From the NCBI GenBank assembly GCA_964479195.1, contig CAYZLI010000001.1, positions 28,572 to 92,571 of the forward strand: DNA of 64,000 bases. Direction: 5' to 3'. Shown one piece after another: positions 19,527 through 39,005 of this stretch. Position numbers and translations under genes: made by a program. The stretch comes from an uncultured Rhodocyclaceae bacterium. GTDB taxonomy: Bacteria; Pseudomonadota; Gammaproteobacteria; Burkholderiales; Rhodocyclaceae. Position 1 is the stretch's first letter, and each line of letters begins with the position of its first letter. The notes below the pieces were generated by a model, which searched no databases, was not told the origin of the DNA, and saw only the letters and a list, made by a program, of their open reading frames with translations.

Positions 19527-19530
19527 GGCT

Positions 19531-20742: not shown

Positions 20743-20744
20743 GC

Positions 20745-20768: not shown

Positions 20769-20773
20769 CGTGC

Positions 20774-22210: not shown

Positions 22211-22224
22211 CAAGGACTTACCCG

Positions 22225-22587
22225 ATGTTCACCCTCTCCCCCGCCGCCGCCACCCGCATCCTGGACTCCGCCGAACAAAGCGGCGCGGCCGGCATGGCCG
22301 TGCGCATTGCCGCCAAGATCGACGAGGACGGACAGGTCGTCTTCGGCCTGGGCTTCGACGAGGAGCGGGAACAGGACCTGTCCCTCCAGTGCGAGGGCGT
22401 CACGGTGCTGATCGCCCCTCCCAGCCAGGAGATTCTGGCCGGCATGATGCTGGACTTCGTCGAGGTGGAGCCGGACAACTGGCAGTTCGTCTTCTTCCAG
22501 TCCGCAGCCCCCGGCGGCTGCTCGACCGGTGGCAACAGCGGCTGCGGCGGCTGCGGCAGCCAGGGCGGCTGCTCCAGCGGCGCTTGA
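22225..22587 (+). CDS. dsrR: DsrR IscA/HesB-like protein with Cys/Gly-rich tail
   Basis: MFTLSPAAA..I, RIAAK...G...FGLGFD, LDFVE; position after dsrN. Confidence 0.85.
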   Translation: MFTLSPAAATRILDSAEQSGAAGMAVRIAAKIDEDGQVVFGLGFDEEREQDLSLQCEGVTVLIAPPSQEILAGMMLDFVEVEPDNWQFVFFQSAAPGGCSTGGNSGCGGCGSQGGCSSGA

Positions 22588-22618
22588 CCCAGCGCAATTG
22601 GCTCGCGGAAGCCATGGG

Positions 22619-22624
22619 TATAAT
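22619..22624 (+). promoter_or_regulatory. Possible sigma70 -10 box for cysG
   Basis: Perfect TATAAT in a GC-rich intergenic region; -35 unclear. Confidence 0.35.
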
Positions 22625-22643
22625 GGGCCAGACCATTTGCTGA

Positions 22644-22710
22644 CGCGGATTTACGCGGATACTCGCGGATTTCTTCTGGGTATAGCCGTGTCCATCCGCG
22701 TTAATCCGCG
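22644..22710. repeat. Palindromic element: 3x CGCGGAT (period 10) plus inverted copies
   Basis: cgcggat at 22644, 22654, 22664; atccgcg at 22694, 22704, degenerate copy at 22684. Confidence 0.8.
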
Positions 22711-22722
22711 CCGAAAGCTCCC

Positions 22723-24159
22723 ATGGATTACCTGCCCATTTTCCTGAACATCCGCGGCGAGCGCTGCGTCGTCGTGGGCGGCGGCACGGTGGCCGCCCGC
22801 AAGGCCGGCGTCCTGCGCGACTGCGGGGCCCGCGTCACGATCGTCTCCCCCGAGCTGGGGGAAGCCCTCGCCGTGGAAGCGGCCGAGGGCCGCGTCCAGC
22901 ATGTCGCCGCCCGCTTCGCCGACGCGCATCTGGACGGCGCCCTGGCCGTGGTCGCCGCCACGGACGAGCACGCGGTCAATGAGGCCGTCTACCGGGCCGC
23001 CAAGGCCCGGGGCATCCCGGTCAACGTCGTCGATTCCCCCGAGCTGTGCTCCTTCATCTTCCCCTCCATCGTGGATCGCTCGCCCATGGTGGTGGCGGTA
23101 TCCACCGGCGGCGCCTCGCCGGTGCTGGCCCGCATGATGCGCGCCCGGCTGGAAACCCTGATCCCGGCAGCCTACGGCCGGCTGGCCAAGCTGGCCGAGG
23201 CGTTCCGTGATCGCGTCAAGCAGCACTTCTCCAACCCGGCCCGGCGCCGCATTTTCTGGGAAAACGCCCTGCAGGGACCGTTCGCGGACATGGTGCTGGC
23301 GGGCAAGGAGCGGATGGCCGAGGAATGGCTGCAAAAAGAGCTCGCCGGCACCCCGGACGAACGGCCCCGCGGCGAGGTCTATCTCGTGGGCGCCGGTCCG
23401 GGCAACCCGGATCTGCTCACCTTCCGCGCCCTCAAGCTCATGCAGCAGGCCGACGTGGTCGTGCATGACCACCTGGTGCCGCCGGCCATCGTCAACCTGT
23501 GCCGGCGCGACGCCCAGCGCATCTATGTCGGCAAGCAGCGCAACGACCATACCCTGCGCCAGGAAGAGATCAATAAGCTCCTCGTCCGGCTGGCCGAGGA
23601 GGGCAAGCGCGTGCTGCGCCTGAAGGGCGGCGACCCCTTCATCTTCGGCCGTGGCGGCGAGGAGATCGAGACCCTGTCCGCCCACGGCGTGCGCTTCGAG
23701 GTGGTGCCGGGCATCACCGCCGCGGCGGGCGTGGCCTCCTATGCCGGCATCCCCCTCACCCACCGGGACTATTCCCACGCCTGCGTCTTCGTCACCGGCC
23801 ACCTCAAGGACGGCAGCATGGACCTGGACTGGCCGGCCCTGGCGCGCCCGGGCCAGACCGTGGTGATCTACATGGGCTTGCTCGGCCTGGCGGTGGCCTG
23901 CCGCGAGCTGATGGCCCACGGCCTGCCGGCGGACTGGCCGGCCGCCATCGTGCAGCAAGGCACCACCCACAAGCAGCGCGTGCTCATCGGCACGCTGGAA
24001 ACCCTGCCGCCGCTGGCGACGGCGGCGCAGCTCAGGCCACCGACGCTGATCATCGTCGGCGAGGTGGTGAAGCTGCACGACAAGCTGAAGTGGTTCGAGC
24101 CGGATCAGGCTCCCGACGTGGGCGCCTGGAAGAAAAGCGACAAGATCGCCGCGGTCTGA
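22723..24159 (+). CDS. cysG: Siroheme synthase CysG
   Basis: VVGGGTVAARK, VYLVGAGPGNPDLLT, RLKGGDPFIFGRGGEE. Confidence 0.97.
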   Translation: MDYLPIFLNIRGERCVVVGGGTVAARKAGVLRDCGARVTIVSPELGEALAVEAAEGRVQHVAARFADAHLDGALAVVAATDEHAVNEAVYRAAKARGIPVNVVDSPELCSFIFPSIVDRSPMVVAVSTGGASPVLARMMRARLETLIPAAYGRLAKLAEAFRDRVKQHFSNPARRRIFWENALQGPFADMVLAGKERMAEEWLQKELAGTPDERPRGEVYLVGAGPGNPDLLTFRALKLMQQADVVVHDHLVPPAIVNLCRRDAQRIYVGKQRNDHTLRQEEINKLLVRLAEEGKRVLRLKGGDPFIFGRGGEEIETLSAHGVRFEVVPGITAAAGVASYAGIPLTHRDYSHACVFVTGHLKDGSMDLDWPALARPGQTVVIYMGLLGLAVACRELMAHGLPADWPAAIVQQGTTHKQRVLIGTLETLPPLATAAQLRPPTLIIVGEVVKLHDKLKWFEPDQAPDVGAWKKSDKIAAV

Positions 24160-24276: not shown

Positions 24277-24945
24277 CTACTTCTCCGCCGCCGGCCGCAT
24301 CTTCTGCTCCACGGCGAACACCGCCGCTTCGACGCGGGAGGTGAGGTTGAGCTTGGACAGGATGTGGCGCACGTGCAGCTTGACCGTGTCGTGGGAGATG
24401 TCCAGCGCCCGGGCAATGGCCTTGTTGGACAGCCCGTGCGCCAAGTGATCCAGGATCTCCCGCTCGCGGCCGGTAAGGTGCGCGAGCAGGTTCTCCCGCG
24501 TGGCGCTCTTCGGCCCCGTCTGCAGGAGATTGACCAGCTTCAGGGTCATGGCCGGCGCCACCACCGTCTCGCCGCGCACCGCCCGCTGGATGGCATCCAC
24601 CACGTCGTCCGGCTCCATGTCCTTGAGCAGGTAGCCGCGCGCCCCGGCGCGCATGGCGTTGGCCAGGTCGTCCTCCGCATCGCTCACGGTGAGGATCAGC
24701 GTGGGCCCCGTCCAGCCCGCCGCCTGCAGCTCCCGCAGCAGGGCCAGTCCGCCGTGGGGCGGCATGTTGAGGTCCAGGATCAGCACCTCGGGCCGCTGCT
24801 CCTGGAGCAGGTGGGAAGCCTCGTCCGGATTGCTGGTGGCGCCGACCACCCGGATGCCGTCCCGTCCATCGAGCAGTTCCGCCAGTCCCTTGCGGAACAG
24901 GGTGTGGTCGTCGACCAGCATCACCTTGGTGACGCTTTCCGTCAT
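24277..24945 (-). CDS. NarL/LuxR-family response regulator
   Basis: LVDDH..FRKG, LDLNMP, GARGYLLKD, LTGRE.EIL...GLSNKAIA...TVKLHVR. Confidence 0.93.
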   Translation of the reverse strand: MTESVTKVMLVDDHTLFRKGLAELLDGRDGIRVVGATSNPDEASHLLQEQRPEVLILDLNMPPHGGLALLRELQAAGWTGPTLILTVSDAEDDLANAMRAGARGYLLKDMEPDDVVDAIQRAVRGETVVAPAMTLKLVNLLQTGPKSATRENLLAHLTGREREILDHLAHGLSNKAIARALDISHDTVKLHVRHILSKLNLTSRVEAAVFAVEQKMRPAAEK

Positions 24946-24980
24946 GCGGTCTCCCATCCGAGCTCGGCGCCGCAGGCGCC

Positions 24981-25027
24981 CACGACGTTCCCTTCCCCCT
25001 CTACGGGGGAAGGGCTAGGGATGAGGG
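24981..25027 (+). repeat. Palindromic repeat family A copy
   Basis: cacgacgtt-cccttccccc-tctac-gggggaaggg-ctagggatgaggg. Confidence 0.75.
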
Positions 25028-25042
25028 TGCGGAGGTCGAGTT

Positions 25043-26272
25043 TCATGGGGTCTCCGATTTGTTCTTGGCAACGGGCACCAGCAGGCGCAGGCGGGCGCCT
25101 CCTTGCCGCCGGTTGGCCAGTTCGATCGTGCCGCCCAGGCGCTGGGCGCGCTCGCGCATGATGCTGATGCCGAAATGGTGGCGCAGCTCCGGCTGGGCGC
25201 CCAGGACGAAGACGCCGCGGCCGTCGTCCTCCACCGTGAAGCCGTAGCTGTCGCCGACCATCTCCAGGCTGATCTTCGCCTGCTTGGCGCCCGAATGGCG
25301 CACCACGTTGGCCAGCGCTTCCTGCATGATGTGGAACACCTGCACCTCCTGGTCCACCGTGAGGTTGAGGTCGGGGATGCGGTTCTCGAAATCGAGCCGG
25401 ATGCCGGTCCGGTCGTAGAAGGCGGCGACGATCTCCTCGAGGGCATGCACCAGGCCCAGGGGATCCATGCGGCTGCGGAACTGGGTGAGCAGCTCGCGCA
25501 ACGAGGCGTAGGCCTGGTCCAGGGCCTGCTGGATGTCGCCCGTGTACTTGAGGGCCTGGCCGTTCTCGTAGGAGAGCAGCGCCTCCCGCAGCAACTCGAT
25601 GCGCATCTTCATGTAGGCCATGGTCTGGGCGAGGGAGTCGTGCACCTCGTTGGCCATCATCTGCCGCTCGGTCATGAGGGTCATGCGCAGGTTCTCGCAC
25701 ATCAGCCGGGAGTTCTCCAGGGCCATGGCCAGATGCTCGCTGATGGAGCAGAAGAGCAGCGACACCTCCTCGGGTATCTGGCGTTCCTCGGTCATGTAGA
25801 GGTTGTAGGCGCCGAGCAGCCGGCCGTTGTGCTCCAGGGGCACCACCACCATGGAACGGCACCGGTCGAAGTAAGGCAGATGGGTGCGATCGACGCAGGG
25901 CTTGAAATCCCGCGTGTGCCGGACCTCGTCGTTGCGCACGGCCATGCCGCACACGCCGCAGTCGATCGCCACCAGTTGCTCGCGCTCGATCACCTCGGGC
26001 GGCAGCCCCAGGGAGGCGGCGAGCCGCAAGTGCTGGCCGTCGCTGGTGAGCACGCGCACGGCGCCGGCCGAGGCGCCGGCGAGCCGGACCATCATGCTGA
26101 GGAAGCGGTTGAGCAGGGCGTCCAGGTCGTACTCGGAGGCCAGCGTCGCCGTGACCTCCGAGAGGATGCGCAGGGCCTGGACCTTCCCGCTCTCGTCCTT
26201 TCTGAGCTCGCCGCCGGCCTGCCGCGGCAGGGGATCGCCCTGGTTCATTGTCGTCTCCACCATCCGTTGCAC
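25043..26272 (-). CDS. Cytoplasmic GAF-domain NarX-like (HisKA_3) histidine kinase
   Basis: ERQMMANEVHDSLAQ, QEALANVVRHS, EDDGRG, HFGISIMRERA; no TM segment; start approximate. Confidence 0.9.
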   Translation of the reverse strand: MQRMVETTMNQGDPLPRQAGGELRKDESGKVQALRILSEVTATLASEYDLDALLNRFLSMMVRLAGASAGAVRVLTSDGQHLRLAASLGLPPEVIEREQLVAIDCGVCGMAVRNDEVRHTRDFKPCVDRTHLPYFDRCRSMVVVPLEHNGRLLGAYNLYMTEERQIPEEVSLLFCSISEHLAMALENSRLMCENLRMTLMTERQMMANEVHDSLAQTMAYMKMRIELLREALLSYENGQALKYTGDIQQALDQAYASLRELLTQFRSRMDPLGLVHALEEIVAAFYDRTGIRLDFENRIPDLNLTVDQEVQVFHIMQEALANVVRHSGAKQAKISLEMVGDSYGFTVEDDGRGVFVLGAQPELRHHFGISIMRERAQRLGGTIELANRRQGGARLRLLVPVAKNKSETP

Positions 26273-26334
26273 CCGGTGCGCGGGGCCCGCAGGCGCCCTG
26301 CCAAGTCTTTATTGCGGCGATTTTACACCGCGTA

Positions 26335-26352
26335 AGTATTTACTGAAATACT
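26335..26352. promoter_or_regulatory. 7-4-7 palindrome upstream of the GAF kinase gene
   Basis: AGTATTT-actg-AAATACT in an AT-rich intergenic region. Confidence 0.45.
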
Positions 26353-26399
26353 AATCAAAACGGCTGCACAACGGGGCGCGGCCCGTCGGGATTCCCGCC

Positions 26400-27089
26400 C
26401 TACCCCTTGCCCGGCCGTTCATGCCCGCCCGCACCCGGCGACCGAACCCCCGGAGACTCCCGTTTCACCGCGAGCACCGCCGCCTCGGTGCGGCTGCGCA
26501 CCTGCAGCTTCTGCAGTATGAGCGTCACGTAATGCTTCACGGTCTTCTCCGCAAGGTGCAGGCGCTCGCCGATTTCGCGATTGGTGCAACCCTGACCGAT
26601 CAGGCCCAGGACCTCGGCCTCCCGCGCCGTAAGTTCGCACAGCGGATCGGACGCAACCGGGCGGGAAAACTCGAAGAGCAGCTCCGCGGCCAGCGCCGGC
26701 GTGATGTAGGCCTCCCCGCCGGCGACCCGGCGCGCGGCGGAGCGCAGCTCGCTCGCCGACACGCCTTTCAGGACGTAGCCGTGCGCGCCGGCCTTCAAGG
26801 CGGCAAACAGGCTGTCCCGATCCTCGGACACGGTGAGCATCATGATGCGCACCCCCGGCAAGTCCGCGGCGATCTGCCCCGCGGCGGCAATGCCCCCCAT
26901 GCCGGGCATGCCGATGTCCAGCAGCACCATGTCGGGACGCAGGCGGTGCGCGAGTTCCACGGCCTCTTCCGCGCTACCCGCCTGGGCGACGACCTCGAGG
27001 TCGGCGTCGGCGCCCAGGGAGTGGGCGACCCCCTCCCGGAACAACGGATGATCGTCGGCGAGCAGGATGCGGATTGGACCGGTGCCCAT
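26400..27089 (-). CDS. LuxR-family response regulator
   Basis: LADDHPLFREG, LLDIGMP, LTAREAEVL...TNREIG...TVKHYV. Confidence 0.93.
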   Translation of the reverse strand: MGTGPIRILLADDHPLFREGVAHSLGADADLEVVAQAGSAEEAVELAHRLRPDMVLLDIGMPGMGGIAAAGQIAADLPGVRIMMLTVSEDRDSLFAALKAGAHGYVLKGVSASELRSAARRVAGGEAYITPALAAELLFEFSRPVASDPLCELTAREAEVLGLIGQGCTNREIGERLHLAEKTVKHYVTLILQKLQVRSRTEAAVLAVKRESPGVRSPGAGGHERPGKG

Positions 27090-27121
27090 TTCAATATCCC
27101 CTTCGTGCGTCGAGCCGGCGG

Positions 27122-28528
27122 CTACGCATTCGCGACCTCGTCGGTGGTCAGGGGCAGCCGGGCCCGGACCAGCGTGCCGCGTCCCGGGGCGGCGTCGACC
27201 TCGAGCACTCCGCCCAGCAGCCGGGCGCGCTCATGCATGAAGGTCAGCCCGAGCCGTCCGGCCGAGGAGGCGGACTGGGGATCGAAGCCGGGACCCTGGT
27301 CGGCAACCTCGACGAGCACCTCACCGTCCTCCTGGCCCACCCGCACCCGCTGCGCGCTGCCGCGCGCATGCCACCAGCCGTTGGTCAGCGCCTCCTGGAT
27401 CAGCCGGTAGACGGTGATCTTGAGCGCGAGCGAGGCCTCGCCCGGCGTGGCGTCGATCGCAGTTTCGACGGTAGCCCCCGACTTGCGCTCGAAATCGCGC
27501 ACCGCACGCCGCGCCATATCGGCCAGCGAAAGGCTTTCAGTGCCCGGCGGCATGCGCAGGCCCGAGGCGATCGCTCTCAGCTCCTCGAGCGAGGACTGCA
27601 ATGCCTTGTGGATCGTCCTGACATCGCCGCCCGCGTTCAGCCTGCAGGGGTTGCACGCCTGGACAAGCGTCTCGAAGCGCAGCAGTGCCAGGGCCATATC
27701 CTGCGCCGGTCCATCATGCAGGTCCGCGGCCACCCTTTGCAGGAACTGCTCGTTGAGCGCCGTGGTGCGTGCGCCCGCCTCCCGCAGCCGTTCGCGCATC
27801 CGTTCGTTCTCGTCGAGCGCCAGGCGCAGGTCGTCCAGTTTGCGCCGCAGGTCATTGCGCTGCCCGAGGATCGTGTTGCTGGCGCGGCGCACCAGGCCCA
27901 GCAGCAGCAGGTAGGTCGCTGCCACGCCTGCCACGACGAGTACCCAGCCACGCCGCTGTGCGGCCCGGATTTCGCGGCCCAGGTTCTCCACGGAATGGTA
28001 GAACTCGGCGACGGCGGTGACCCGGCCGTCCTTCCCGTGCACCGGCACGTAGACCTCCAGCAGCCTCGGCCAGTGCTCGCGCTCCATGATTTCTTGCGGT
28101 TCATCGAGGATGCTCATCGCGCTTTTCATCTCGCCGGCAAGCGCCGCGGCCAGGTGTCCCGTGACGGGGAAGCGGAGCCCCTCCTGGCCGTGGTCGCTGC
28201 TGTAGAGAACCGTTCCGTCGGGATTCCAGAGCTTGAAGCGGACCACTTTGTGGTGCAGCGGCCCTTGCACGAACAGGCGGTCGAGGGACTCCCGGGTTTC
28301 CTGGGTCAGCGCGCCGGCGGCCGACCGTTCCAGCAACTGCGCTTCGAGGATGCCGTCGACATAGAGCGCGGTGATCGCCGCGGCGCGGTTGGCCGCGCTG
28401 GTTTCCAACTGGCGTTCCAGCCAGAGCCCGATGGTCAAGGTGCCCCCGACGAGGATCAGCACGCTCAACAGCAGGAACTGACGCGAGAAGCTCAGACGGC
28501 TGAAGGGTCGGTTCAGTGCTGCCAACAT
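27122..28528 (-). CDS. Membrane sensor histidine kinase (HisKA_3)
   Basis: Two TMs flanking a periplasmic domain; ADLHDGPAQ, QEALTN, DQGPGF. Confidence 0.9.
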   Translation of the reverse strand: MLAALNRPFSRLSFSRQFLLLSVLILVGGTLTIGLWLERQLETSAANRAAAITALYVDGILEAQLLERSAAGALTQETRESLDRLFVQGPLHHKVVRFKLWNPDGTVLYSSDHGQEGLRFPVTGHLAAALAGEMKSAMSILDEPQEIMEREHWPRLLEVYVPVHGKDGRVTAVAEFYHSVENLGREIRAAQRRGWVLVVAGVAATYLLLLGLVRRASNTILGQRNDLRRKLDDLRLALDENERMRERLREAGARTTALNEQFLQRVAADLHDGPAQDMALALLRFETLVQACNPCRLNAGGDVRTIHKALQSSLEELRAIASGLRMPPGTESLSLADMARRAVRDFERKSGATVETAIDATPGEASLALKITVYRLIQEALTNGWWHARGSAQRVRVGQEDGEVLVEVADQGPGFDPQSASSAGRLGLTFMHERARLLGGVLEVDAAPGRGTLVRARLPLTTDEVANA

Positions 28529-28848
28529 CGGAATGCCGCCTATCTGTTCGCCAATGGCGGGGTAGCAAAGAATGGTATCACGCGAAGGTCGCACGGGGTA
28601 TGCGACCAAAGTCCGATCCGCGCGCAACCTTCATCCGAACCAATCAGGACCGTAGGCCCGTGGCAGACGCTTTAGATTTAAAGACAATAGGGGGGCCGCA
28701 ATGCATAAGAAAAAGATATGGGCCAGGAAAGCGAACTGTTCATTGCGGAGACCTGACGGCAAGCCCGCGCAAGAAACAAGAAAAGAGAAGGCTCCGGCTG
28801 GCACTCGAGCGGCCGGGTACCGGGAAGTTCACTACTACGGGGGGATCC

Positions 28849-30138
28849 ATGTTTGCAGCCAAAGTTTCCAGATTCATGTTTTCGGTCGCGCTCTTTCTGA
28901 CCGCCGCCGCCGTTTCCACGCCGAGCCAGGCCATCCCGGCCTTTGCGCGGCAGTTGGGCAAGGCCTGCAATACCTGCCATTTCCAGCACTACCCGGCCCT
29001 CAACGCCTACGGCCAGGAGTTCAAGGCCGGCGGTTTCACGGAGATGGGCAAGCAAGGCGTCCTGAAGGGCAAGGAACTCTCGCTTCCCGAGATCCTCAAC
29101 GCCAGCCTGTTCACCAAGATCCGCTACCAGAAGAACAACGGCGCCGATCTCCCGGACACGCCCACGGCCGCCAGCGGCGAGTGGCAGTTTCCCGATGAGT
29201 TCGCCCTGCTGTTCGGTGGCCGCATCACGCCGAACATCGGCTTCATGCTGGAGGGGCAGCTCGCCAACGGCGCCGCCGGCTTCCTGGCCGGCTTCAAGAT
29301 GCCGTTCATGTATGACGTCGCCGGCGTGAAGGCCGGCGTGATTCCCTACACGACGGACGCCCTGGGCGCCTCCTACGGCTTCGAGCTGCTCAACACCGGC
29401 GCGGTGCGCAACGTGCGCATCATGGAACACCGCAACGAGAGTTCGGCACAGCAGTACCTCGGCACGGCGACGGCCGCCATGGGGGCCGCCTTCGTCCTCT
29501 GGGATCCCCGGTACTTCATCAACTTCTCGAAATGGTCGCCGAACCATGCCGCCGTCGCGGAAGAGCGCGCCAATGGCAATCCGAGTTCCAACTACTTCCG
29601 TGCCGCGCTGACGCCCTCCCTGGGCGGCTGGGATCTCGGCTTCGGCGTGCAATCGTGGAGCGGCTCGTCGAAGCAGGATGACGGCCTGGGAACCGGTACG
29701 GTGATCACGGTCCAAACCAAGGCCTGGGCGCTCGATGCCCAGGCCCAGGGCGCCGTTGGCAAATTCCCCCTGGGCATTTACTTCACCCACGCCAACGCGC
29801 CGGGAACGGCGGCGGGAGCTGCCACCGCCAACCTGTACAACGCCAACCCGAACGACAAGAAGGCGACGACGATCTCGGCCGAACTCGGCATCATCCCCAA
29901 CAAGGCGACCCTGATGCTTGCCTACCGCCGGGCCGACACCGGCCGCGTCGCCACCGCGGCGCGCAGCAGCCGCGACAATGCCACGACCCTCGGAGCCACA
30001 TACCAGTTGGCGCAGAACGTGCAACTGCAGTTGCAGCACAGCATTCGCACCAAGGACAATGGCTACCAGGGGTCGGACACGACCCAGGCCCTTCGTGGCG
30101 ATCGATTGACCACCTTCATGCTGTCTGCGGGCTTCTGA
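28849..30138 (+). CDS. cyc2: Cyc2-like fused monoheme cytochrome c / outer-membrane porin (putative Fe(II) oxidase)
   Basis: Signal peptide ending SQA, then IPAFARQLGKACNTCHFQHYPALNAYGQEFKAGGF; beta-strand-like body; C-terminal Phe (MLSAGF). Confidence 0.82.
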   Translation: MFAAKVSRFMFSVALFLTAAAVSTPSQAIPAFARQLGKACNTCHFQHYPALNAYGQEFKAGGFTEMGKQGVLKGKELSLPEILNASLFTKIRYQKNNGADLPDTPTAASGEWQFPDEFALLFGGRITPNIGFMLEGQLANGAAGFLAGFKMPFMYDVAGVKAGVIPYTTDALGASYGFELLNTGAVRNVRIMEHRNESSAQQYLGTATAAMGAAFVLWDPRYFINFSKWSPNHAAVAEERANGNPSSNYFRAALTPSLGGWDLGFGVQSWSGSSKQDDGLGTGTVITVQTKAWALDAQAQGAVGKFPLGIYFTHANAPGTAAGAATANLYNANPNDKKATTISAELGIIPNKATLMLAYRRADTGRVATAARSSRDNATTLGATYQLAQNVQLQLQHSIRTKDNGYQGSDTTQALRGDRLTTFMLSAGF

Positions 30139-30290
30139 AGGCGGCAGGGAAGTAAGTAATGGGGGAAGGCCACCCGCCTTCCCTCTGCCATGCCCCCCCG
30201 AGGGGGGGCTGGCTCACGCCGGGCGTCCGGATGCGGCGCATCGGCTCGGCTCGAGAACCGTCCGAAGACAGAGACGGAACGGAGGAGAAG

Positions 30291-30944
30291 ATGACCCAAT
30301 GGAGACGCGGCCTGCCGCGAACCACGCAAACGCGGGCTGGGGGCGGCAGGCGCGGCCGGTTGCTGCTTCAGTTGCTGGGAGCGCTGGCCCTCGCCGCGAC
30401 GCTTCCCGCGGCGCACGGTGCGGGCGGGAATCCGCTCTGTGCCGGTTGCCACAGCGAGGACGGAAACAGCGTCATTCCCGAGAACCCGAAACTTGCCGGC
30501 TTCGATCCCGAATACATCATCAAGCAGCTTTCGGATTTCAAGTCCGGCAAGCGCACCAGCCTCGTCATGGGCGCGATGGTCGGGCAGATCGGCGAGGGGG
30601 ATTTCGACGCCCTGGCCGGCTACTACAGCGAGCAGAAGCGGGCGCCGGGCGTCGTGGCCAATCCCAAGCTGGCGGCGCAAGGGCAGCTAATCTACGATGA
30701 GGGCATAGTCGGAAGCGCGGTTCCGGCCTGCTCGGGCTGTCATAACGAGGATGGCAGCGGAACGGCGAAGTTCCCCCGGCTGGCCGGCCAGCACCCAGCC
30801 TACGTTGTCCAGCAGATGATCAACTTCAAGAACGACAGCCGCAACAACGACAGCCGCGAAGTCATGCGTGCCGTGGCCAAGCGCATGAACGAGCCGGAGA
30901 TGCGCGCGGTCGCCGAGTACATCACCGGTCTTAAGGGGGAGTGA
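30291..30944 (+). CDS. Diheme cytochrome c4
   Basis: CAGCH and CSGCH; PKLAG, FPRLAGQHPAY. Confidence 0.9.
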   Translation: MTQWRRGLPRTTQTRAGGGRRGRLLLQLLGALALAATLPAAHGAGGNPLCAGCHSEDGNSVIPENPKLAGFDPEYIIKQLSDFKSGKRTSLVMGAMVGQIGEGDFDALAGYYSEQKRAPGVVANPKLAAQGQLIYDEGIVGSAVPACSGCHNEDGSGTAKFPRLAGQHPAYVVQQMINFKNDSRNNDSREVMRAVAKRMNEPEMRAVAEYITGLKGE

Positions 30945-30947
30945 TCG

Positions 30948-31670
30948 ATGAAAGCCTGGTCTCTGTTTGCGGCCCTCGCGCTGCTGCCGGCGCAGCCGGC
31001 GCTGGCCGACCTGGCCGACGCGGCCCGGAGCCCGAAGGGGTTCGGGAGCAAAGGATATGTCTGGAACAAGATGACCCGCGAGCAGGTCGAGGTGATGAGC
31101 AAGTCGGGCGATCCGGTGCGCGGCAAGGAGGCCTTCCGCGGCTGCCGCGGCTGCCACAAACCCGACGGCTCGGGCCTGATCGACGGCACCTATCCGCGGC
31201 TGACGGGGCAGTACGCCGTGGTAATCATCAAGCAGGTGACCGATACGCGCGCCGGCATTCGCGTCAATCCGAAAATGGAGCCATTTGCGTCCGAGCACGC
31301 GGTCAGTACCCAGGAGATTGCCGACATCGCGGTCTTTCTCGCCTCTGAACGAACCTTGGTGGAAAACGGCAAGGGCCCGGGCGATCATGTTTCCCGCGGC
31401 CAGGCGCTGTACAAGAAGGAATGCGCCAAGTGCCACGGCGAGTTCGGCGAAGGACAGGAGGAAAAGATCTATCCGGCGGTGGCGGCGCAGCACTACGGGT
31501 ATTTGTTGCGGGAGCTGGAACATGTCAAGAAAGGCACGCGCGGCAATTCCCATCCCAAGATGGTCAAGGTTCTGCGCAACTATTCGAGAACCGATCTGGA
31601 GGCGATGGCCGATTACATGTCCCGCATGCCCGATTACCGGCAAGCCGACGCGCAGGGAGGCGGTAAATGA
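30948..31670 (+). CDS. Diheme cytochrome c (c4-like)
   Basis: Signal peptide; CRGCH and CAKCH; YPRLTGQ, YPAVAAQHY. Confidence 0.9.
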   Translation: MKAWSLFAALALLPAQPALADLADAARSPKGFGSKGYVWNKMTREQVEVMSKSGDPVRGKEAFRGCRGCHKPDGSGLIDGTYPRLTGQYAVVIIKQVTDTRAGIRVNPKMEPFASEHAVSTQEIADIAVFLASERTLVENGKGPGDHVSRGQALYKKECAKCHGEFGEGQEEKIYPAVAAQHYGYLLRELEHVKKGTRGNSHPKMVKVLRNYSRTDLEAMADYMSRMPDYRQADAQGGGK

Positions 31671-31963
31671 GCATGCGACTGGCGGCTCTCCTGATCTGTG
31701 TGTGTGCCGGCCCGGCCTTCGCTGCCGACGGCAAGGCGATATACGACCGGGTCTGCTACAAGTGCCATCGGTCGGGCGTGGATGAGGCGCCGATCGCGGG
31801 CGACAAGGAGGCCTGGGCCCCGCGGCTTGCCTCCGGCATGGCCACGCTGTACAGGAGCGTGATGGAAGGCAAAGGGGAGATGCCCCCCCGCGCCAACAAA
31901 CCCGAACTGACCGACGAGGAGCTCAAGGCCGGTGTGGATTACATGGTCGGGCTGGTCAAGTAG
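31667..31963 (+). CDS. Cytochrome c5
   Basis: GKAIYDRVCYKCH..G...AP..GDK.AW, MPPR. Confidence 0.9.
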   Translation: MSMRLAALLICVCAGPAFAADGKAIYDRVCYKCHRSGVDEAPIAGDKEAWAPRLASGMATLYRSVMEGKGEMPPRANKPELTDEELKAGVDYMVGLVK

Positions 31964-32058
31964 GGCTGCGGCGTCCGACCGCGGACATCGCGTGATCCGG
32001 TGCGGCGCGACGCGCCAGGAATGATCGTGATCCGCGACAACCCCGGACCATCGACGGC

Positions 32059-32577
32059 ATGAAGTACAAAGTCCAGCCGAGCACGCGGGAAAAGCTCATG
32101 CGCGAGGAGGACTTCATCGTCTCCAAGACCGACCTCAAGGGGCGCATCACCTACGGCAACCGCGTATTCATCGAGTTTTCCGGCTACAGCGAACAGGAGC
32201 TGCTCGGCAGCCAGCACAACATCATCCGCCATCCCGACATGCCGCGCGGCGTGTTCAAGTTCCTGTGGGACACGCTGGCGGCGGAGAAGGAATGCTTCGC
32301 CTACGTCAAGAACATGGCGAAGGACGGCAGCTTCTATTGGGTGTTCGCCAACGTTACCCCGTCCTACGATCCGGCCGGAGGCGTGGACGGCTACTTCTCG
32401 GTGCGCCGCGCGCCGGGGCGCGCAGCGGTAGACGTCATCGCCGACATCTATCGCGCCATGCTGGCGGAAGAGCACAAGGCCGGCCCGCGCGACGCGATGG
32501 CGGCTTCGCTGGACTGGCTCGGCGGCGCATTGGCGCAGAAAGGAACGAGCTATGAAGAATTCGTCCTTTCGCTTTGA
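32059..32577 (+). CDS. Stand-alone Aer-type PAS protein (CetB-like)
   Basis: [16 protein letters not shown]...SGY...[13 protein letters not shown]...W.....YVKN..KDG.FYWV. Confidence 0.88.
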
Positions 32578-34051
32578 GGAAGTGGCATCGGTCGCCGCGC
32601 TCAACGCCCTGCTGCTGGGGGCGGGGCTGGCCGGCGTGGCCCGCCACGGCTGGCAGGGCGGCGACTGGATCTGGTTCGGCGTGCTCACCGGCGCCTTGGT
32701 GGTGCTGGGACTCTACAACCTGCGCTTCCGCATGCGGCTCGCCGATTCCCTGCGGGCGATCGCGCGCGTCGCCAGCCAGGTGGGAAGGGGCCAGATGGGC
32801 GGACGCATCACCGGCATCCGCCAGGACGAGCTGGGGCTGGCCATGTGGCATGTCAACGACATGCTCGACCAGCTCGAGACGTGCTTCCGCGAGCAGCGCA
32901 CGGCCCTGCAGTATGTGAGCCAGGGCAAATACTTCCGCAAGACCCACCCGGCCGGCCTGCATGGTGAATTCCGCAAGTCCCTGGAAGGCTTCAACCAGTC
33001 GCTGCGCGCCCTCGAGGAGCATGGCCGCTGGCAGCTCAAGAACGAGCTGCTGTCCAAGCTCGGCCACCTCAACTCGACCAACCTGGTGCAGAACATCCGC
33101 ACCAACCAGGACGACCTGCGCAACATCGCCACCGCCGCGGACGACCTGGAGCGGATCTCGCGCGACAACGCCGAAGGGGCACAAGCCTCCAGGGAGTCGA
33201 TCGACGGCGTCGTCGCCTCCCTCAACGGCATCGCCGAGCGCATCGACGCGGCCTACGCCGCCATCGAGCAGTTCAGTTCCCGCAGCAGCGAGATCGCGCA
33301 CTCCCTCGGCCTCATCGCGGACATTGCCGACCAGACCAACCTGCTGGCGCTCAACGCCGCCATCGAGGCGGCCCGCGCCGGCGAGCACGGCTCCGGTTTC
33401 GCGGTGGTGGCCGACGAAGTGCGCAAGCTCGCCGAGAAATCCAAGCAGGCCTCGGCGGAGATCTCCGCCATCATGGGCGGGCTGCGCGCGGACACCTTGA
33501 CGATTCTCAGGGAGTCGGGCGCGGCGCGGGGCATGGCCAACTCGTCCAAGGACACGGTGGCCGACTTCGAGCATCGTTTCAACGCCTTCTCGGAATCGGC
33601 GCGGATCGCGCTCGAGCGCATCGGCTGTGTGCGCGACATGAGCTTTGCCTCCCTGGCCAAGGTCGATCACATCGTCTACAAGCAGAACGGCTACATCGCC
33701 GTCAGCGCCGGGCCGGGCTCTGAACAGGCGCGCGTGGTCGCCACCGACGAGCGCGAATGCCGCTTCGGCCGCTGGCTGGAGGGCAAGGAGGGCGGCGCGG
33801 GGTTGCGTGCGCCGAGCGCCGACCGCAACCTGGCGGCGCTCCACGGGGAGGTGCATCGGCGCATGCGAGAGGCGGTGCTCAGCGCAGCCGCGGGCTGGGA
33901 GAGCGACGCCCGGGTGCAGGCGCAAATGTATGCGAGCTTCACCGCCGCCGAGCGGGCCTGCGACGAGTTCATGGGGCTGCTCGACGAATTGCTGCGCGAG
34001 AAGCACGGCGCCGTGCGGAGCGCGAGGGCGGAAGCGGCAGTGGACGCCTGA
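32552..34051 (+). CDS. Methyl-accepting chemotaxis protein with C-terminal CZB-like domain (CetA-like)
   Basis: [53 protein letters not shown]. Confidence 0.9.
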
Positions 34052-34067
34052 CTGGTAGCCATCTCAA

Positions 34068-34364
34068 TTGATCAAATACCCGGTTTACGTTCTGCTACTG
34101 GTCTTTGCCTGCGCGGCTTTCGCATCCGATGGGAAAGCGGTGTACGACAGGGCATGCAAGAAGTGCCACCGGTCGGGCGTGGACGATGCTCCGATTCTGG
34201 GGGACAAGGCCGCCTGGAACCCGCTCCTCGGGGCAGGCATGGACGCACTTTACAAGAGCGTCATCGAAGGGAAGGGGGAGATGCAGCCCCGCGCCAACAA
34301 ACCCGAATTGACCGACGAGGAGCTCAAGGCCGGTGTGGATTACATGGTCGAGCTGGTCAAGTGA
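34068..34364 (+). CDS. Cytochrome c5, second copy
   Basis: CKKCH; near-identical 3' end to 31667-31963; TTG start. Confidence 0.88.
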   Translation: MIKYPVYVLLLVFACAAFASDGKAVYDRACKKCHRSGVDDAPILGDKAAWNPLLGAGMDALYKSVIEGKGEMQPRANKPELTDEELKAGVDYMVELVK

Positions 34365-34435
34365 GCGGCACTGCTGTGCCAGTGGCCGGTTGGCCTGGCC
34401 GAACAGGATTGTTTACGACTAAAGAGGGAAAGAGG

Positions 34436-35440
34436 ATGGCATCAAGAACGAAGTTGGGGGTGATCAGCTTGTCCGGCGCGGCGCTGCTTGTTGTCGCAGC
34501 TTGTTCGCGCATGCCGACGATTCCCAACCCCCTGGAGTTGGTTTCAGGCCCCGCCGCCATCCATGTCGAGGTTCCCCCCAGGCCTGCGGCCACGCCGATC
34601 CTGCGCTCCGGCCAGCCGATCAGCCTGCTGGTCTCCGACTACGCCGATGCGCGGCCGACGGCGCCGGCCAGGAGGATCGGTGACATCCGGGCGACGGTGG
34701 CGAACATGCACGGCAGCGAGCTGACCCTGGATCGGGACATAGCGGCCGTCGTAAGCGCCGCGGTGAGGAATCAACTCCAGGCGGACGGCTTCCGGCTGGT
34801 CGGCTCGCCCGGGGATGGACACGACTTCACCGTCAGCGGCGAGACCAGGGCGCTCGTGCTGAATATCGCCGGCCGCGACGAACTCAACATCGTCACCCAG
34901 ACCACGCTGCGCAGCGGCAAGACCGGGGAAGTCCTGTGGTCCGGCATCGTCACCGAGAAATCCGACCGCTTCGCCGGCGTGAACGGCAATACCCGGGCGT
35001 CGATCACGGAATACCTGGGCGAGGGACTGGCAGAGCTGGCCGCGAAGACCAGTGCCTCGATTCGCGAGGGCCTCGCCAAGTCGTATCCGCACACGATCGT
35101 CGCCAGCCAGCGCCGCGAGATCTCTGCGGTGCCGGGCGTGACGATCGTCCAGGCCCCCGCGGATCGGGAATCCGCGGTCGCCGGTACGGCGACCGCGGAA
35201 AACCCACGGTCTGTCGCCGCAACGAGCACCGGCACGGGGCATTTCTCCGTCGCCACGATTCCCTCCCGCGCGAAGGTGTATGTGGATGACGTCTATTACG
35301 GCATGTCGCCCCTCAAGATCGCCTTGGCGGCCGGCGTGCACCGGTTCACCTTCAAACTCGACGGCTACAAGGCCGCAACCGAGAAAGTCTCCGTGCGTCA
35401 GGGAGAGACCACGGAGCTTGAGGTGAAATTCGAGAAATAG
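34436..35440 (+). CDS. Lipoprotein with C-terminal PEGA domain
   Basis: Lipobox VAAC; ATIPSRAKVYVDDVYYGMSPL...G.H.....LDGY. Confidence 0.75.
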   Translation: MASRTKLGVISLSGAALLVVAACSRMPTIPNPLELVSGPAAIHVEVPPRPAATPILRSGQPISLLVSDYADARPTAPARRIGDIRATVANMHGSELTLDRDIAAVVSAAVRNQLQADGFRLVGSPGDGHDFTVSGETRALVLNIAGRDELNIVTQTTLRSGKTGEVLWSGIVTEKSDRFAGVNGNTRASITEYLGEGLAELAAKTSASIREGLAKSYPHTIVASQRREISAVPGVTIVQAPADRESAVAGTATAENPRSVAATSTGTGHFSVATIPSRAKVYVDDVYYGMSPLKIALAAGVHRFTFKLDGYKAATEKVSVRQGETTELEVKFEK

Positions 35441-35468
35441 GCCCCCAGGGAATCGGCGTCGGGGAAGG

Positions 35469-36041
35469 CTAGCGGTGGGGCGCGGGCAGCGGCCAGCGGC
35501 CGTCCAGCACGCGCTCGGCCCACAGCAGGCAGGCAACCGTCTTGCCGTCGGTCAGGCGGCCGTCGCGCACGGCCTCGATCGCCTCCCCCAAGGCAAGTTC
35601 GTGCACTTCGAGGAACTCGCCGTCGTCCAGCGCATGGCCGACGTGGCTCAGGCCGCGGGCGAAGAAGATTTCGATACGCTCGTCCGAGTAGCCGATGCAG
35701 GGGTGGATGACGCCGAGGTAATGCCAGTCGCGGGCCACATAGCCCGTCTCCTCCTGAAGTTCCCGCCGCGCGGTGAGCAGGATGTCCTCGCCCGGGTGGA
35801 TCTTGCCGGCAGGGAGCTCCAGGAAGACGCGGTGGAGGGGGTAGCGGAACTGGCGCTCGAAGAGCAGCTTGCCGTTGGGCAACTCGGCGATCATGACCAC
35901 GGCACCGGGATGGGTAACGTACTCGCGGGTGGCCACCATCCCGTCCGGCAGGCTCACGCGGTCGCGCTTCACTTTCAGCAGGCGGCCGCCGAAGACCTCC
36001 TCGCTGTCCAGCCCGACCTCGCGCAGGTGGCTATCGCTCAT
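35469..36041 (-). CDS. NUDIX hydrolase (ADP-ribose pyrophosphatase-like)
   Basis: ELPAGKIHPGEDILLTARRELQEETGY Nudix box; QFRYP. Confidence 0.92.
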   Translation of the reverse strand: MSDSHLREVGLDSEEVFGGRLLKVKRDRVSLPDGMVATREYVTHPGAVVMIAELPNGKLLFERQFRYPLHRVFLELPAGKIHPGEDILLTARRELQEETGYVARDWHYLGVIHPCIGYSDERIEIFFARGLSHVGHALDDGEFLEVHELALGEAIEAVRDGRLTDGKTVACLLWAERVLDGRWPLPAPHR

Positions 36042-36091
36042 GCTGCCCCGCAAAGCCCCGTTGAACCAATTCCCGAGTGCTTTGGTCGAAT

Positions 36092-36107
36092 ATTAGTCAT
36101 GACTAAT
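36092..36107. promoter_or_regulatory. Perfect 16-bp palindrome, candidate operator
   Basis: ATTAGTCATGACTAAT, 19 nt upstream of ATG 36127. Confidence 0.6.
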
Positions 36108-36126
36108 TAACTAGACGGAGGACCAT

Positions 36127-36582
36127 ATGAACGACTTCATTCCCGGCTTCGCGGCCGACGGCGTGGTCACCGTCAACCGCGTCGTGCTCAAGCCGCAGTA
36201 TAGCGTCGACGACCTGGAGGAACGGGTCGCGGTGCTCTGCGAAAACGTGAAGACCTACCACTCGGAAACCGGCTTCGTCGGCGGCTTCGTCTGCCTCAAT
36301 TCCGGCATGATTTCCAACGAGGGCAGCACGGTCGGCCAGGCGGTCGCCAGCGCCCTCAAGGACCGCGAGGCGCTGATCATCACCTTCTGGCACTCCTTCG
36401 AGGAACACGAAGCCTCGCACCGCAGCCCGACCTTCCAGCCGCTGTTCCGGCAGGTGCTGGAGTTGTGCGAAAACGGCAACGAGGAGATCGCCTACCGCAT
36501 GCTGTGGTCGGGCAAGGCCTACAGCGCGGAAGAAGCCAAGGCGGCCCGGGAGGCCAAGGAGCAGTACCTGAGAGCCGCGTAA
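36127..36582 (+). CDS. Dimeric alpha/beta-barrel protein with sulfur oxygenase reductase-like motifs
   Basis: GGAGGA RBS; LCENVKTYHSETGFVG, TFWHSFEEHEASHR, GNEEIAY. Confidence 0.7.
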   Translation: MNDFIPGFAADGVVTVNRVVLKPQYSVDDLEERVAVLCENVKTYHSETGFVGGFVCLNSGMISNEGSTVGQAVASALKDREALIITFWHSFEEHEASHRSPTFQPLFRQVLELCENGNEEIAYRMLWSGKAYSAEEAKAAREAKEQYLRAA

Positions 36583-36591: not shown

Positions 36592-37941
36592 TCAGGAATC
36601 CCGGAGCCGCTTCCACAGCGTCGTGCGCGACATGCCGAGGCGGCGCGCCGCCTCGGCCTTGTTGCCGCGGGATTCATCGAGCACGCGCAGGATCAGCGCC
36701 TGCTCTGCCTCGGCCGACGGCGGCGCGGTGTAGTAGCGTGTCAGTCGCATGCCGCCACCCGGCGGCGGCGCATCCACGTCGGAGCCCGCCGTCAGCTCCG
36801 GCAGGAGGTGCTCCGGCAGGATGTTCGGCCCCTCGGACTGCACCACGGCATATTCCAGCGCATTGAACAACTGCCGGACGTTGCCCGGCCAACCGTAGGA
36901 CTCCACGGCGGCCATCGCCTCGGACGACAGGCGCAGGTCCGGCCGCCGGTAGCGCTCCGCCAGGTCGCCCAGCAGCTTTCCCGCCAGCAGGGGAATGTCC
37001 TCCCGGTGCTCGCGCAGGGCCGGCACATGCAGGGGCAGCACGCGCAGGCGGTAGTAGAGATCCTCGCGGAACTCGCCTCGCTTCACCATCGCCGCCAGAT
37101 CCCGGTGCGTGGCGGCGGCGACCCGCACGTCCACCTTGCGCGGATGGTTCTCCCCAACGCGCACGATTTCGCGCTCCTGCAGCACGCGCAGCAGCTTGGT
37201 CTGGGTGGCCGCGGAGATCTCCCCGATCTCGTCGAGCAGCAGGGTGCCGCCGCTGGCCGCCTCGAAGCGCCCCAGACGCGCCGCAGTGGCGCCGGAGAAG
37301 GCCCCCTTGGCATGGCCGAACAGCTCGGATTCCTGCAGGTTCTCCGGCAGCGAGGCGCAATGCACGGCGACGTACGGGCCCTTGGCGCGGGCCGAGTTGT
37401 CGTGCAGCGCCCGCGCCACCAGTTCCTTGCCGACGCCGCTCTCCCCGGTGACGAGCACGTTGGCCTCGCTTGCCGCCGCCCGCAGCACCTTCTGGTAAAG
37501 GTCCTGCATGAGGGCGCTGCACCCGATCAGGCCGCCGAGCTGCCAGCGTTCGCGCACTTCCGCTTCCAGTTCCACCTCACGCGAACGGTCGCGCAGGATG
37601 ATGGCGCAATGGAGGCCCGCGTCGTTGGGCGGCAGCAGCATGGCCCACATGCGCAGTGAGATGTCCCGGCCGTCCGCGCCCTTGAGGACGATGTCCTGGA
37701 CCTTCCGGCCCTCGCCCTGCGCCAGCGTGAGCGAACAAAAGCCCCGGATCTCGCAGTCCCGCGCGCAGGCCGTTCCGGCAAACAGCGTCGGGCAGAGCTG
37801 GTCCACGATCGCGGCATCGCCCCGCCGCACCATGCGCGTCGCCGCCTGGTTCATCTCCAGGATCCGGCGCCCGGCATCAAGAAACAACACCCCTTCCTCC
37901 AAGCTGTCGAGGAACACCCTCAACGTCGCCAAACTGGGCAT
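36592..37941 (-). CDS. Sigma54-dependent activator (PAS-AAA+-Fis HTH)
   Basis: [64 protein letters not shown]. Confidence 0.95.
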
Positions 37942-38457: not shown

Positions 38458-38991
38458 ATGTCACAACAAGTCGCCTGGCAACTTTCACTCGTCCTGATAA
38501 CGCTGCTGGCCAGCGTCTTCGCCTTCGTCGCGGGCACCGCCGGGACCCGCGAGGCGGATTACACGCCGCTGCAGAAGCGGGCCTACCGCGTCCGCGCCCG
38601 GCTGTTCTGGACGCTGGTGCTGCTGTTCGGGCCGGTGATGGTGTACACGCTGCTGGATCTGCCCTACGACGCGGCCGCCGCCCGCAACGCCGCCGCCCCG
38701 GTGCAAGTGATCGAAGCGGTGGGTTATCAGTGGCGCTGGGAATTGAGCCGCGACCGCATCGTCGCCGGACAGCCGGTGGAATTCCGCGTCAGCAGCGCGG
38801 ACGTCAATCACGGCTTCGGCATCTACGACCCGGACATGCGCCTGGTGGCGCAGACCCAGGTCATGCCGGGCTATACCAACAAGGTCCGCCATACCTTCAG
38901 CAAAGAGGGCACCTACAAGGTCCTGTGCATGGAGTACTGCGGCATTGCACACGACAACATGATCGCCGAACTCAAAGTCGGCAGCCTGTAA
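38458..38991 (+). CDS. norS: CuA-containing subunit II of sNOR-type heme-copper oxidase
   Basis: GYQWRW, DVNHGF, CMEYCGIAHDNM. Confidence 0.8.
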   Translation: MSQQVAWQLSLVLITLLASVFAFVAGTAGTREADYTPLQKRAYRVRARLFWTLVLLFGPVMVYTLLDLPYDAAAARNAAAPVQVIEAVGYQWRWELSRDRIVAGQPVEFRVSSADVNHGFGIYDPDMRLVAQTQVMPGYTNKVRHTFSKEGTYKVLCMEYCGIAHDNMIAELKVGSL

Positions 38992-39005
38992 AGGAGGAGA
39001 CGAGC

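Follow-up and report, generated by a model that had tools for sequence, protein, structure and literature searches.

A Cluster 1-type cyc2 cassette with a candidate accessory lipoprotein in an uncultured, sulfur-oxidizing Rhodocyclaceae bacterium

The cyc2 Cassette

Contig CAYZLI010000001.1 of an uncultured Rhodocyclaceae bacterium (assembly GCA_964479195.1) was analyzed from position 28,572 to 92,571, a stretch of 64,000 nt without N letters that we call the window and to which all positions below refer. It contains a gene for Cyc2 (P0001), a fused monoheme cytochrome c-porin, which a first-pass annotation had described as the head of a four-gene cyc2-c4-c4-c5 cluster, a candidate conduit for Fe(II) oxidation. 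The secreted protein of 429 aa with a single N-terminal CxxCH, a porin-like body and a terminal Phe was borne out by the open reading frame and by a structural model, and the two diheme and one monoheme cytochromes behind it by their CxxCH counts and their matches to Pfam Cytochrom_C (Table 1). The four genes are present, but the unit had been drawn too short: it continues past 31963 to a second c5-type cytochrome (c5′ or c5b) and a lipoprotein (P0125). The cassette is therefore RR/HK <- cyc2-c4-c4-c5-[PAS-MCP-c5′]-lipoprotein (RR, response regulator; HK, histidine kinase; MCP, methyl-accepting chemotaxis protein) and extends over 26400–35440. We think it probable, if some way from certain, that it is a Cluster 1-type Cyc2 cassette with which a sulfur-oxidizing autotroph takes up electrons from dissolved Fe(II), and that the terminal lipoprotein is a dedicated accessory.

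Table 1. Features of the candidate cyc2 cassette (window positions)
Feature	Position	Strand	Basis
NarL/LuxR-family response regulator	26400..27089	-	Pfam Response_reg + GerE
Membrane histidine kinase, HisKA_3 + HATPase_c, two hydrophobic segments flanking a ~160-aa periplasmic region	27122..28528	-	
Palindrome GACCAAAGTC, pattern GACYWWRGTC, candidate operator	28604..28613	.	Conservation with the kinase
Cyc2 of Cluster 1 type (P0001), a monoheme cytochrome c fused to a porin	28849..30138	+	Motif, fold, tree
Diheme cytochrome c, c4-type (c4a, P0004), 217 aa, 2 CxxCH, start codon uncertain	30291..30944	+	Pfam Cytochrom_C
Second diheme cytochrome c, c4-type (c4b, P0002), 240 aa, 2 CxxCH	30948..31670	+	Pfam Cytochrom_C
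Monoheme cytochrome c, c5-type (c5a, P0003), 98 aa, 1 CxxCH	31667..31963	+	Pfam Cytochrom_C
PAS protein + MCP/CZB chemoreceptor (split Aer-like pair)	32059..34051	+	Pfam PAS_3, MCPsignal, CZB
Second c5-type cytochrome copy (c5b)	34068..34364	+	62/79 mature residues shared with c5a
Lipoprotein of outer-membrane type (P0125) with a lipobox (Cys23), a PqiC/DUF330-like alpha/beta domain, a linker and PEGA at the C-terminus	34436..35440	+	

Identity of Cyc2

Keffer et al. (2021) recognize a Cyc2 by a length of at least 365 aa, one heme site, the motif AXPXFAR[Q/K][T/Y], a PXL motif and a 16-strand porin (PMC8406198, in part; sources cited "in part" were available as excerpts, to which the statements resting on them are limited). 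P0001 exceeds this length and has a signal-peptide-like N-terminus (judged by the sequence and by helix 2–18 of the model), AIPAFARQLGKACNTCHFQHYPALN, its one CxxCH at residues 40–44 and a PXL four residues past it (CH-FQHY-PAL), of which P49 and L51 are invariant in both alignments checked. The AlphaFold2 model, computed from a 98-row alignment, has a confidence score (pLDDT, the predicted value of the local distance difference test) of 88.8 and 16 barrel strands counted from the DSSP string; Foldseek matched it to Omp38, OprP (2o4v) and OprO (4rjx/4rjw) with E-values of 1e-10 to 6e-9. The suspected porin body is thus predicted to be a 16-stranded barrel of the OprO/OprP type. With 1095 homologs at E ≤ 0.001 among 7995 candidates scored, together with the model and its porin matches, the resemblance of P0001 to Cyc2 is not due to chance. 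Pfam and NCBIfam gave no family assignment, a sequence search of the PDB found no relative, and a plasmid search with P0001 returned 4 matches, all N-terminal only.

The homologs form two sets, full-length proteins with CH(F/Y)QH(F/Y)PxL and proteins that match over approximately the first 135 residues only. A first tree had 98 rows (self, duplicate, masked and broken rows excluded) and a second, a quick IQ-TREE run with SH-aLRT support only, had 58, namely 46 of the 98 and 12 of the 18 proteins of family f92; both gave the same Cluster 1 placement. In the 58-row tree P0001 belongs to a clade of 46 rows (SH-aLRT 100), separate from the 12 N-terminal-only rows that we presume to be Cluster 2/3, and within it to an inner clade of 31 rows (SH-aLRT 98) with proteins source-named Gallionella, Sideroxydans, Ferrigenium and Sideroxyarcus, to which it is 37–59% identical. 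Besides these Gallionellaceae proteins, published peptides of Cyc2PV-1 served as anchors; since the 12 f92 rows (27–32% identity to P0001) match such peptides, for example QTGAACLSCHFQTFP, f92 is taken to be Zetaproteobacteria-type. P0001 therefore groups with the Cyc2 proteins of Gallionellaceae and Zetaproteobacteria, as the first-pass annotation had suggested, and does not fall outside Cyc2. Rusticyanin, Cup, HiPIP and oxidase genes are absent from 26400–35440 and P0001 stands apart from the presumed Cluster 2/3 rows; the cassette does not correspond to a rus-operon-type (Cluster 2) pathway. Motif, fold and tree support the identity as Cyc2 and the placement in Cluster 1 on the Gallionellaceae side.

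That P0001 is an Fe(II) oxidase is supported by the Cluster 1 Cyc2 proteins of PV-1 (PMC8406198, in part) and TAG-1 (PMC13692758, in part), which oxidize Fe(II) in vitro when expressed alone in Escherichia coli. Several observations weigh against it. The motif reads AIPAFARQL and ends with L where the published strict form has T or Y, so that the N-terminal Cyc2 signature claimed at first pass deviates at this last position; the motif is a consensus, and its strict form occurs in only 52 of the 98 close homologs, the last column being mostly T. The cytochrome domain is of low confidence in the model (pLDDT <50 at residues 20–35 and 39–46), the nearest assayed type is only 27–32% identical, and the closest relatives are uncultured organisms without known iron oxidation (the nearest named ones are uncultured Sulfurisoma, Rhodocyclaceae, Methylotenera, Rhodoferax and Sterolibacterium).

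A full-length homolog was found in 2 of 150 genomes of the family and in neither of 2 of the same genus, a patchy distribution that fits the horizontal spread described for Cyc2 (PMC12442345, in part). This patchiness and the slightly lower GC content over 28–32 kb (0.64 versus 0.67–0.70 on either side) could also mean a decaying, recently acquired island without a role in the host, or else the conduit could run outward, to Fe(III) or humics. Either is very improbable, since every gene is intact, several families show the same arrangement and the three characterized Cyc2 clusters are oxidases (PMC8406198, in part). Moreover, the stretch is present in five groundwater runs from two studies, of which four runs may be its source, and contigs of the second study (fifth run) cover all 30 bins of 26000–36200 at ~98% identity. 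No RNA run was among the matches listed.

His47 of P0001 (window ~28987), which follows the heme His by three residues, is conserved in every row (40 of 40) of one alignment, whereas the f92 proteins have another residue there; it is a candidate for a second ligand, of heme or of Fe, in this Cyc2 branch. A divergent Cluster 1-type Cyc2 was also seen in two loci titled Stenomitos sp. (L034) and Ca. Sericytochromatia (L035), which may be a binning error.

The Lipoprotein and Its Linkage to cyc2

The neighborhood of cyc2 was compared in 36 loci from a genome collection, which were picked by six peptide patterns and are thus biased to near relatives. All but one are full length (35), and in 30 the sequence extends far enough downstream for neighbor counts. 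The most conserved neighbor is the lipoprotein, with a homolog in 23 of the 30 loci, in records titled Beta-, Gamma- and Deltaproteobacteria, versus c4a in 8, c4b in 6 and c5 in 6. The first-pass annotation had named c4 cytochromes as the usual partners, which these counts do not sustain, and had missed the lipoprotein. At loci titled Deltaproteobacteria or Thermodesulfobacteriota the lipoprotein gene lies directly 3′ of cyc2 and none of c4a, c4b and c5 is present; in the window it is displaced 2.5 kb from the rest of the cassette by the PAS-MCP pair and the second c5.

P0125 contains no CxxCH, and its lipobox Cys23 is near-invariant in the homologs. The residues after this Cys determine the sorting of lipoproteins, and those of P0125 suggest the outer membrane. 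Foldseek matched the N-terminal domain to PqiC, DUF330 (XCC0632), PelC and CsgG (E 8e-8 to 2e-5, 11–17% identity), which makes it PqiC/DUF330-like in fold. Among profiles, only PEGA passes its cut-off, Lipoprotein_16 remaining below it and matching weakly in the homologs. P0125 has neither an above-cut-off match to the PqiC/DUF330 family model nor PqiAB-type neighbors, and pqiAB, pel or csg genes were not seen near the lipoprotein in any of the loci listed; it resembles PqiC but is not classed as PqiC.

Co-occurrence was counted in 400 other genomes of the order (a full-length match with E<1e-80 scoring as Cluster 1-type cyc2), in 121 genomes of family f29, which is Gallionellaceae-type as judged by named relatives, and in 290 other genomes of the phylum. 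In the order sample 18 genomes have a full-length Cluster 1-type cyc2 and 12, spread over five families, a full-length lipoprotein; all 12 are among the 18. Genomes of this sample with only N-terminal Cyc2 matches have no lipoprotein (0/75), and a weak partial match (6e-11) was seen in one genome without a Cyc2 match (G405). In f29 both genes are present in 82 genomes, cyc2 only in 12, the lipoprotein only in 1 and neither in 26, so that 82 of 94 cyc2-bearing genomes have the lipoprotein. The phylum sample contains 68 genomes with Cluster 1-type cyc2 (66 of f92 and 2 of f114), and one other genome with a PEGA-only match. Because kin genomes are not independent, we state no P value and rely instead on two observations, the adjacency of the genes in distant lineages and the near-absence of the lipoprotein where cyc2 is lacking.

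From these findings we tentatively propose, at slightly less than an even chance, that the PqiC-like/PEGA lipoprotein is a so far unrecognized, dedicated component of the Cyc2 iron-oxidation machine of freshwater and groundwater bacteria. It would bind the barrel from the periplasmic side, assemble or stabilize the heme plug and position the periplasmic cytochromes, and together with cyc2 it would form a minimal module of two genes that moves among Beta-, Gamma- and Deltaproteobacteria.

Several findings count against a dedicated partner. Cyc2PV-1 is active alone in E. coli and the lipoprotein is therefore not required for catalysis. It was not found in any of the 68 Zetaproteobacteria-type cyc2 genomes of the phylum sample, so it is not universal, and the six order-sample genomes that have Cluster 1-type cyc2 without it all belong to family f43. 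In f29 it is unlinked from cyc2 in 7 of 7 loci examined, six of which have NUDIX and CBS genes before it and a dUTPase gene facing it, and part of the co-occurrence in this family is therefore shared ancestry; it is directly behind cyc2 in the f29 genomes G565 and G544. Of five further genomes whose cyc2 loci lacked the lipoprotein, one has the gene 8 kb away and four have no full-length match.

The six f43 genomes (L064, L069, L070, L072, L073 and L075), each with a full-length Cluster 1-type Cyc2 and no lipoprotein, come from one genus (g131) of small-genome betaproteobacteria. This genus could serve as a natural control and may be a group of iron oxidizers that has not yet been described.

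The Sideroxydans Protein Slit_0749

The proteome tables of Sideroxydans ES-1 list one PEGA protein, Slit_0749, which has 316 aa, was detected in Fe(II)-grown cells with 29 peptides (73% coverage) and adjoins the CBS protein Slit_0748 (PMC12016527 supplements, in part). Size, domain and neighbor match the f29 arrangement, and by these, rather than by sequence, Slit_0749 is the likely ES-1 ortholog of P0125. In each of 5 comparisons its abundance shifts in the same direction as that of Cyc2_1, yet the neighbor Slit_0748 behaves likewise (same supplements, in part); co-variation was therefore dropped as evidence of partnership. The intensity per iBAQ (intensity-based absolute quantification) peptide is, by our own arithmetic from these tables, ~1/8 of that of Cyc2_1. 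This ~8-fold lower abundance counts against a 1:1 subunit and fits an assembly or scaffold role better.

The main text of PMC12016527 contains no mention of Slit_0749. A published discussion of the lipoprotein with cyc2, or of PEGA in iron oxidizers, was not found among the papers listed by searches that did not reach bioRxiv supplements or papers behind subscriptions; the supplements of PMC8788666, PMC12442390 and PMC10734462 contain no PEGA, and the available part of the 2026 review PMC13741234 does not contain the word "lipoprotein".

If Cyc2 works as proposed for the cassette, the lipoprotein could still be a stranger to it, with another envelope task of iron oxidizers (e.g., Fe(III) shedding or the organization of a surface polymer) or as a co-transferred passenger. 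The unlinked genes of f29, the cyc2 carriers of f92/f114 and f43 without lipoprotein, the non-specific co-variation in the proteome and the work of the fold relatives PqiC, PelC and CsgG in transport and secretion agree with this. It does not explain why the gene lies directly behind cyc2 in distant lineages whose loci have none of these cytochromes in common. A passenger would also be expected to occur alone, yet only 1 of 83 f29 carriers, a metagenome-assembled genome of 370 contigs, has no Cluster 1 cyc2 match, and not one full-length carrier lacks such a cyc2 in the order sample (0 in 400) or in the phylum sample (0 in 290). We therefore give the reading without partnership little credence.

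The Two-Component System and a Candidate Operator

Synteny and an upstream palindrome support the assertion of the first-pass annotation that the cassette has its own divergent two-component system. Regulators 64–77% identical occupy the same position in L001, L003, L004, L005 and L007, and the kinase has an ortholog in 5 of the 30 loci with enough upstream DNA, as well as in L058. The pattern GACYWWRGTC occurs in 7 of 7 intergenic regions with this kinase, each time with a shuffle frequency of ≤0.005, and is missing from all 4 close loci that do not have the kinase; in the six aligned regions it is 60–95 bp from the kinase start. Since the pattern was derived from six of the seven regions, L058 is the sole independent test. 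We take the palindrome to be similar to the boxes of NarL/DosR-family regulators. A sigma-70 promoter or a convincing terminator was not found in 28500–36100.

A copy of the palindrome is located 51 bp upstream of the host's dsrA. Co-regulation of dsrA and cyc2 was considered and rejected as chance, because among 30 upstream regions of dsrA in the family (one of them probably of the wrong strand) only the host's own contains the palindrome. Directly behind the cassette's regulator and kinase, at 24277–26272, there is a second, NarX/NarL- or NarQ/NarL-like pair; it was rejected as a part of the cassette, since related loci have no orthologous pair, only cross-hits of 22–36%.

The PAS-MCP pair is found in 0 of 35 related full-length cyc2 loci and has a paralogous pair on another contig of the host (C78). 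Its absence from the related loci leads us to read it as a local, lineage-specific insertion. Next to it c5b shares 70 of its last 72 coding bases with c5a; an assembly artifact was rejected for PAS-MCP-c5b because contigs of both studies cover the region, although no single contig spans the c5 repeats.

The Host and the Electron Donor

The host genome (94.8% complete) has DsrAB and RuBisCO over cut-offs, a contig-end fragment of NapA, a cbb3-like subunit below cut-off and seven heme-copper-family genes. The region 9795–24159 begins with dsrA and dsrB, over cut-off and 17 kb upstream of the cassette, followed by what we take to be dsrEFHCMKLJOPN and cysG in a reverse-Dsr layout. Elsewhere in the genome, contig C6 (~15.6–29.3 kb, L104) encodes one cytochrome with 11 hemes, one with 4 and three triheme ones of c7 type, a peptidyl-prolyl isomerase (PPIase), an NHL-repeat protein and a 617-aa candidate porin, a set that matches the parts list of Uet and appears Uet-like; Uet has been reported from Tenderiales and a few Gallionella (PMC10734462). 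Contig C89 (6961–13781, L103) encodes 24-heme and 15-heme cytochromes, a 799-aa TPR-bearing probable porin with a probable cytochrome c maturation gene behind it and a membrane protein of 304 aa (WX3HX13H twice, and SGXXG), which match the parts list of PCC3 and make this cluster appear PCC3-like. By the cassette and these Uet-like and PCC3-like conduits the host is a probable facultative iron oxidizer.

What was directly observed are the genes present, the motif, the predicted folds, the position in the tree and the co-occurrence; that the chain is complete, as claimed at first pass, and that Fe(II) is its substrate are inferences. Fe2+ would be oxidized at the heme plug of the Cyc2 barrel, by analogy with the Cyc2 proteins of PV-1 and TAG-1; the electrons would pass to the co-encoded c4, c4 and c5 cytochromes and from there to heme-copper oxidases (O2) or to Nap-linked or nitrate respiration. 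The divergent kinase and regulator would control the cassette via the candidate site GACCAAAGTC. Anchored in the outer membrane, the heme-free lipoprotein would help to assemble or stabilize Cyc2 from its periplasmic side or provide a docking scaffold there, as a non-essential factor that carries no electrons.

Because the host is a sulfur oxidizer with dsrAB so close to the cassette, the conduit might take up electrons from a donor other than free Fe2+, such as reduced humics, FeS-derived species or sulfur species tied to reverse-Dsr. Many bacteria that do not oxidize iron carry cyc2, for which other roles in extracellular electron transfer have been proposed (PMC5566968, in part), and many Cyc2 carriers are also sulfur oxidizers (PMC12442345, in part). 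However, the small barrel is predicted to pass dissolved Fe2+ and not large substrates (PMC8406198, in part), the cassette adjoins dsr only in the host among the loci inspected, and of the 30 dsrA upstream regions only the host's own has the operator-like site. Alternatively, Cyc2 might be mainly an Fe(II) or redox sensor that feeds the kinase and the chemoreceptor, a sensing role having been raised before (PMC12442390; PMC12016527) and a PAS-MCP pair being part of the cassette; but related loci do without that pair, and sensing alone would account less well than bulk electron flow for three periplasmic cytochromes encoded alongside. Another donor or a sensing function is thus unlikely, though to be taken seriously, and uptake of electrons from dissolved Fe(II) remains our preferred interpretation. 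Lack of induction by Fe(II), which the first-pass annotation had listed as a counter-argument, would be a weak refutation of it because cyc2 is constitutive in proven iron oxidizers (PMC12442390).

Comparison with Known Systems

Cyc2 is the main marker of iron oxidation at neutral pH, the remaining pathway being poorly known (PMC12442390). Cluster 1 cyc2 has already been published from Rhodocyclaceae metagenome-assembled genomes (PMC8478452, in part), and its presence in this genome is therefore not surprising. Outside the classic families Cluster 1 cyc2 has been described for Ca. Ferristratum (PMC8114936, in part), and a sulfur oxidizer that oxidizes Fe(II) with a Cluster 2 cyc2 is known in Sulfuriferula (PMC12285272, in part); PMC10993476 (in part) deals with a Cluster 3 gene and has no bearing on this case. 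The Cyc2 gene alone is thus ordinary, whereas the conserved lipoprotein partner and a regulated cassette with a candidate operator were not found in print.

With the Cluster 1 systems of Gallionellaceae (e.g., Sideroxydans ES-1 Slit_0263-0265) and of Ca. Ferristratum the cassette shares the fused monoheme cytochrome-porin and the CHxQHxPxL heme region, and with the former also the 31-row clade (the ES-1 and Ferristratum sequences themselves are not in the tree) and the lipoprotein family prevalent in f29. It differs in that a single-copy cyc2, its own c4/c4/c5, the two-component system and the lipoprotein are together in cis, and in that the host is a sulfur oxidizer outside the known iron-oxidizer families. 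The verified Cluster 1 iron oxidases Cyc2PV-1 of Mariprofundus ferrooxydans and Cyc2TAG1_1 of Ghiorsea bivora have the same architecture and an N-terminal motif of the same kind, which in P0001 departs from the strict form at its last letter, and P0001 aligns with the f92 (Cyc2PV-1-type) clade over the full length; apart from the low identity and the missing lipoprotein, f92 proteins have T, S or A where P0001 has His47 (CHFQH).

The c4-type cytochromes directly behind cyc2 recall the rus operon of Acidithiobacillus (cyc2-cyc1-cup-cox-rus; PMC10654088) and the Bradyrhizobium cluster of cyc2, HiPIP and three cytochromes (PMC5566968, in part), but the Cyc2 of Acidithiobacillus belongs to Cluster 2 (PMC8406198, in part) and the cassette is devoid of the rusticyanin, Cup, HiPIP and oxidase genes. 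From PqiC, DUF330 (XCC0632), PelC and CsgG, with which it shares the fold of the N-terminal domain, P0125 is set apart by its low identity, the extra PEGA domain and the different gene neighbors.

Yields of heterologous Cyc2 are low and a sequence search finds no solved relative. A conserved accessory lipoprotein would offer a concrete target; Slit_0749, its likely ortholog, is abundant in the public ES-1 proteome. In the compact cassette, one locus holds candidates for the periplasmic acceptors together with a regulator and its possible operator. If our proposal is correct, no other accessory protein specific to Cyc2 would precede this lipoprotein, and Gallionellaceae-type Cluster 1 systems would gain a further marker, besides Cyc2 itself, that separates them from other Cyc2.

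Further Observations

Downstream of the cassette, 36127–36582 encodes a protein of 151 aa without a Pfam or NCBIfam match, upstream of a gene for a sigma-54-type regulator (labeled from its sequence) at 36592–37941. At 38458–42591 there follow a COX2-like gene, a COX1-family gene with FGHxxxN, SCO1/SenC, a membrane protein gene and a formate/nitrite transporter gene, an arrangement similar to that of an sNOR-type nitric oxide reductase cluster.

Among the related loci, L008, L024 and L026 (Gemmatimonadales- and Deltaproteobacteria-titled) have beside cyc2 what we take to be genes for alternative complex III-like subunits. L027 has at 11526–14613 genes for a cytochrome with ten hemes and for a probable porin of 715 aa, presumably an MtoAB-like pair; its Cluster 1-type cyc2, which has no lipoprotein, lies 3 kb upstream of them. 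Genus g226, considered as a possible group of nitrite oxidizers, has the lipoprotein in 0 and cyc2 in 3 of 24 genomes; multi-copy genes of the type II dimethyl sulfoxide (DMSO)-reductase family were present in 2 of 5 of its genomes tested, and a single copy in 1 of 5 controls.

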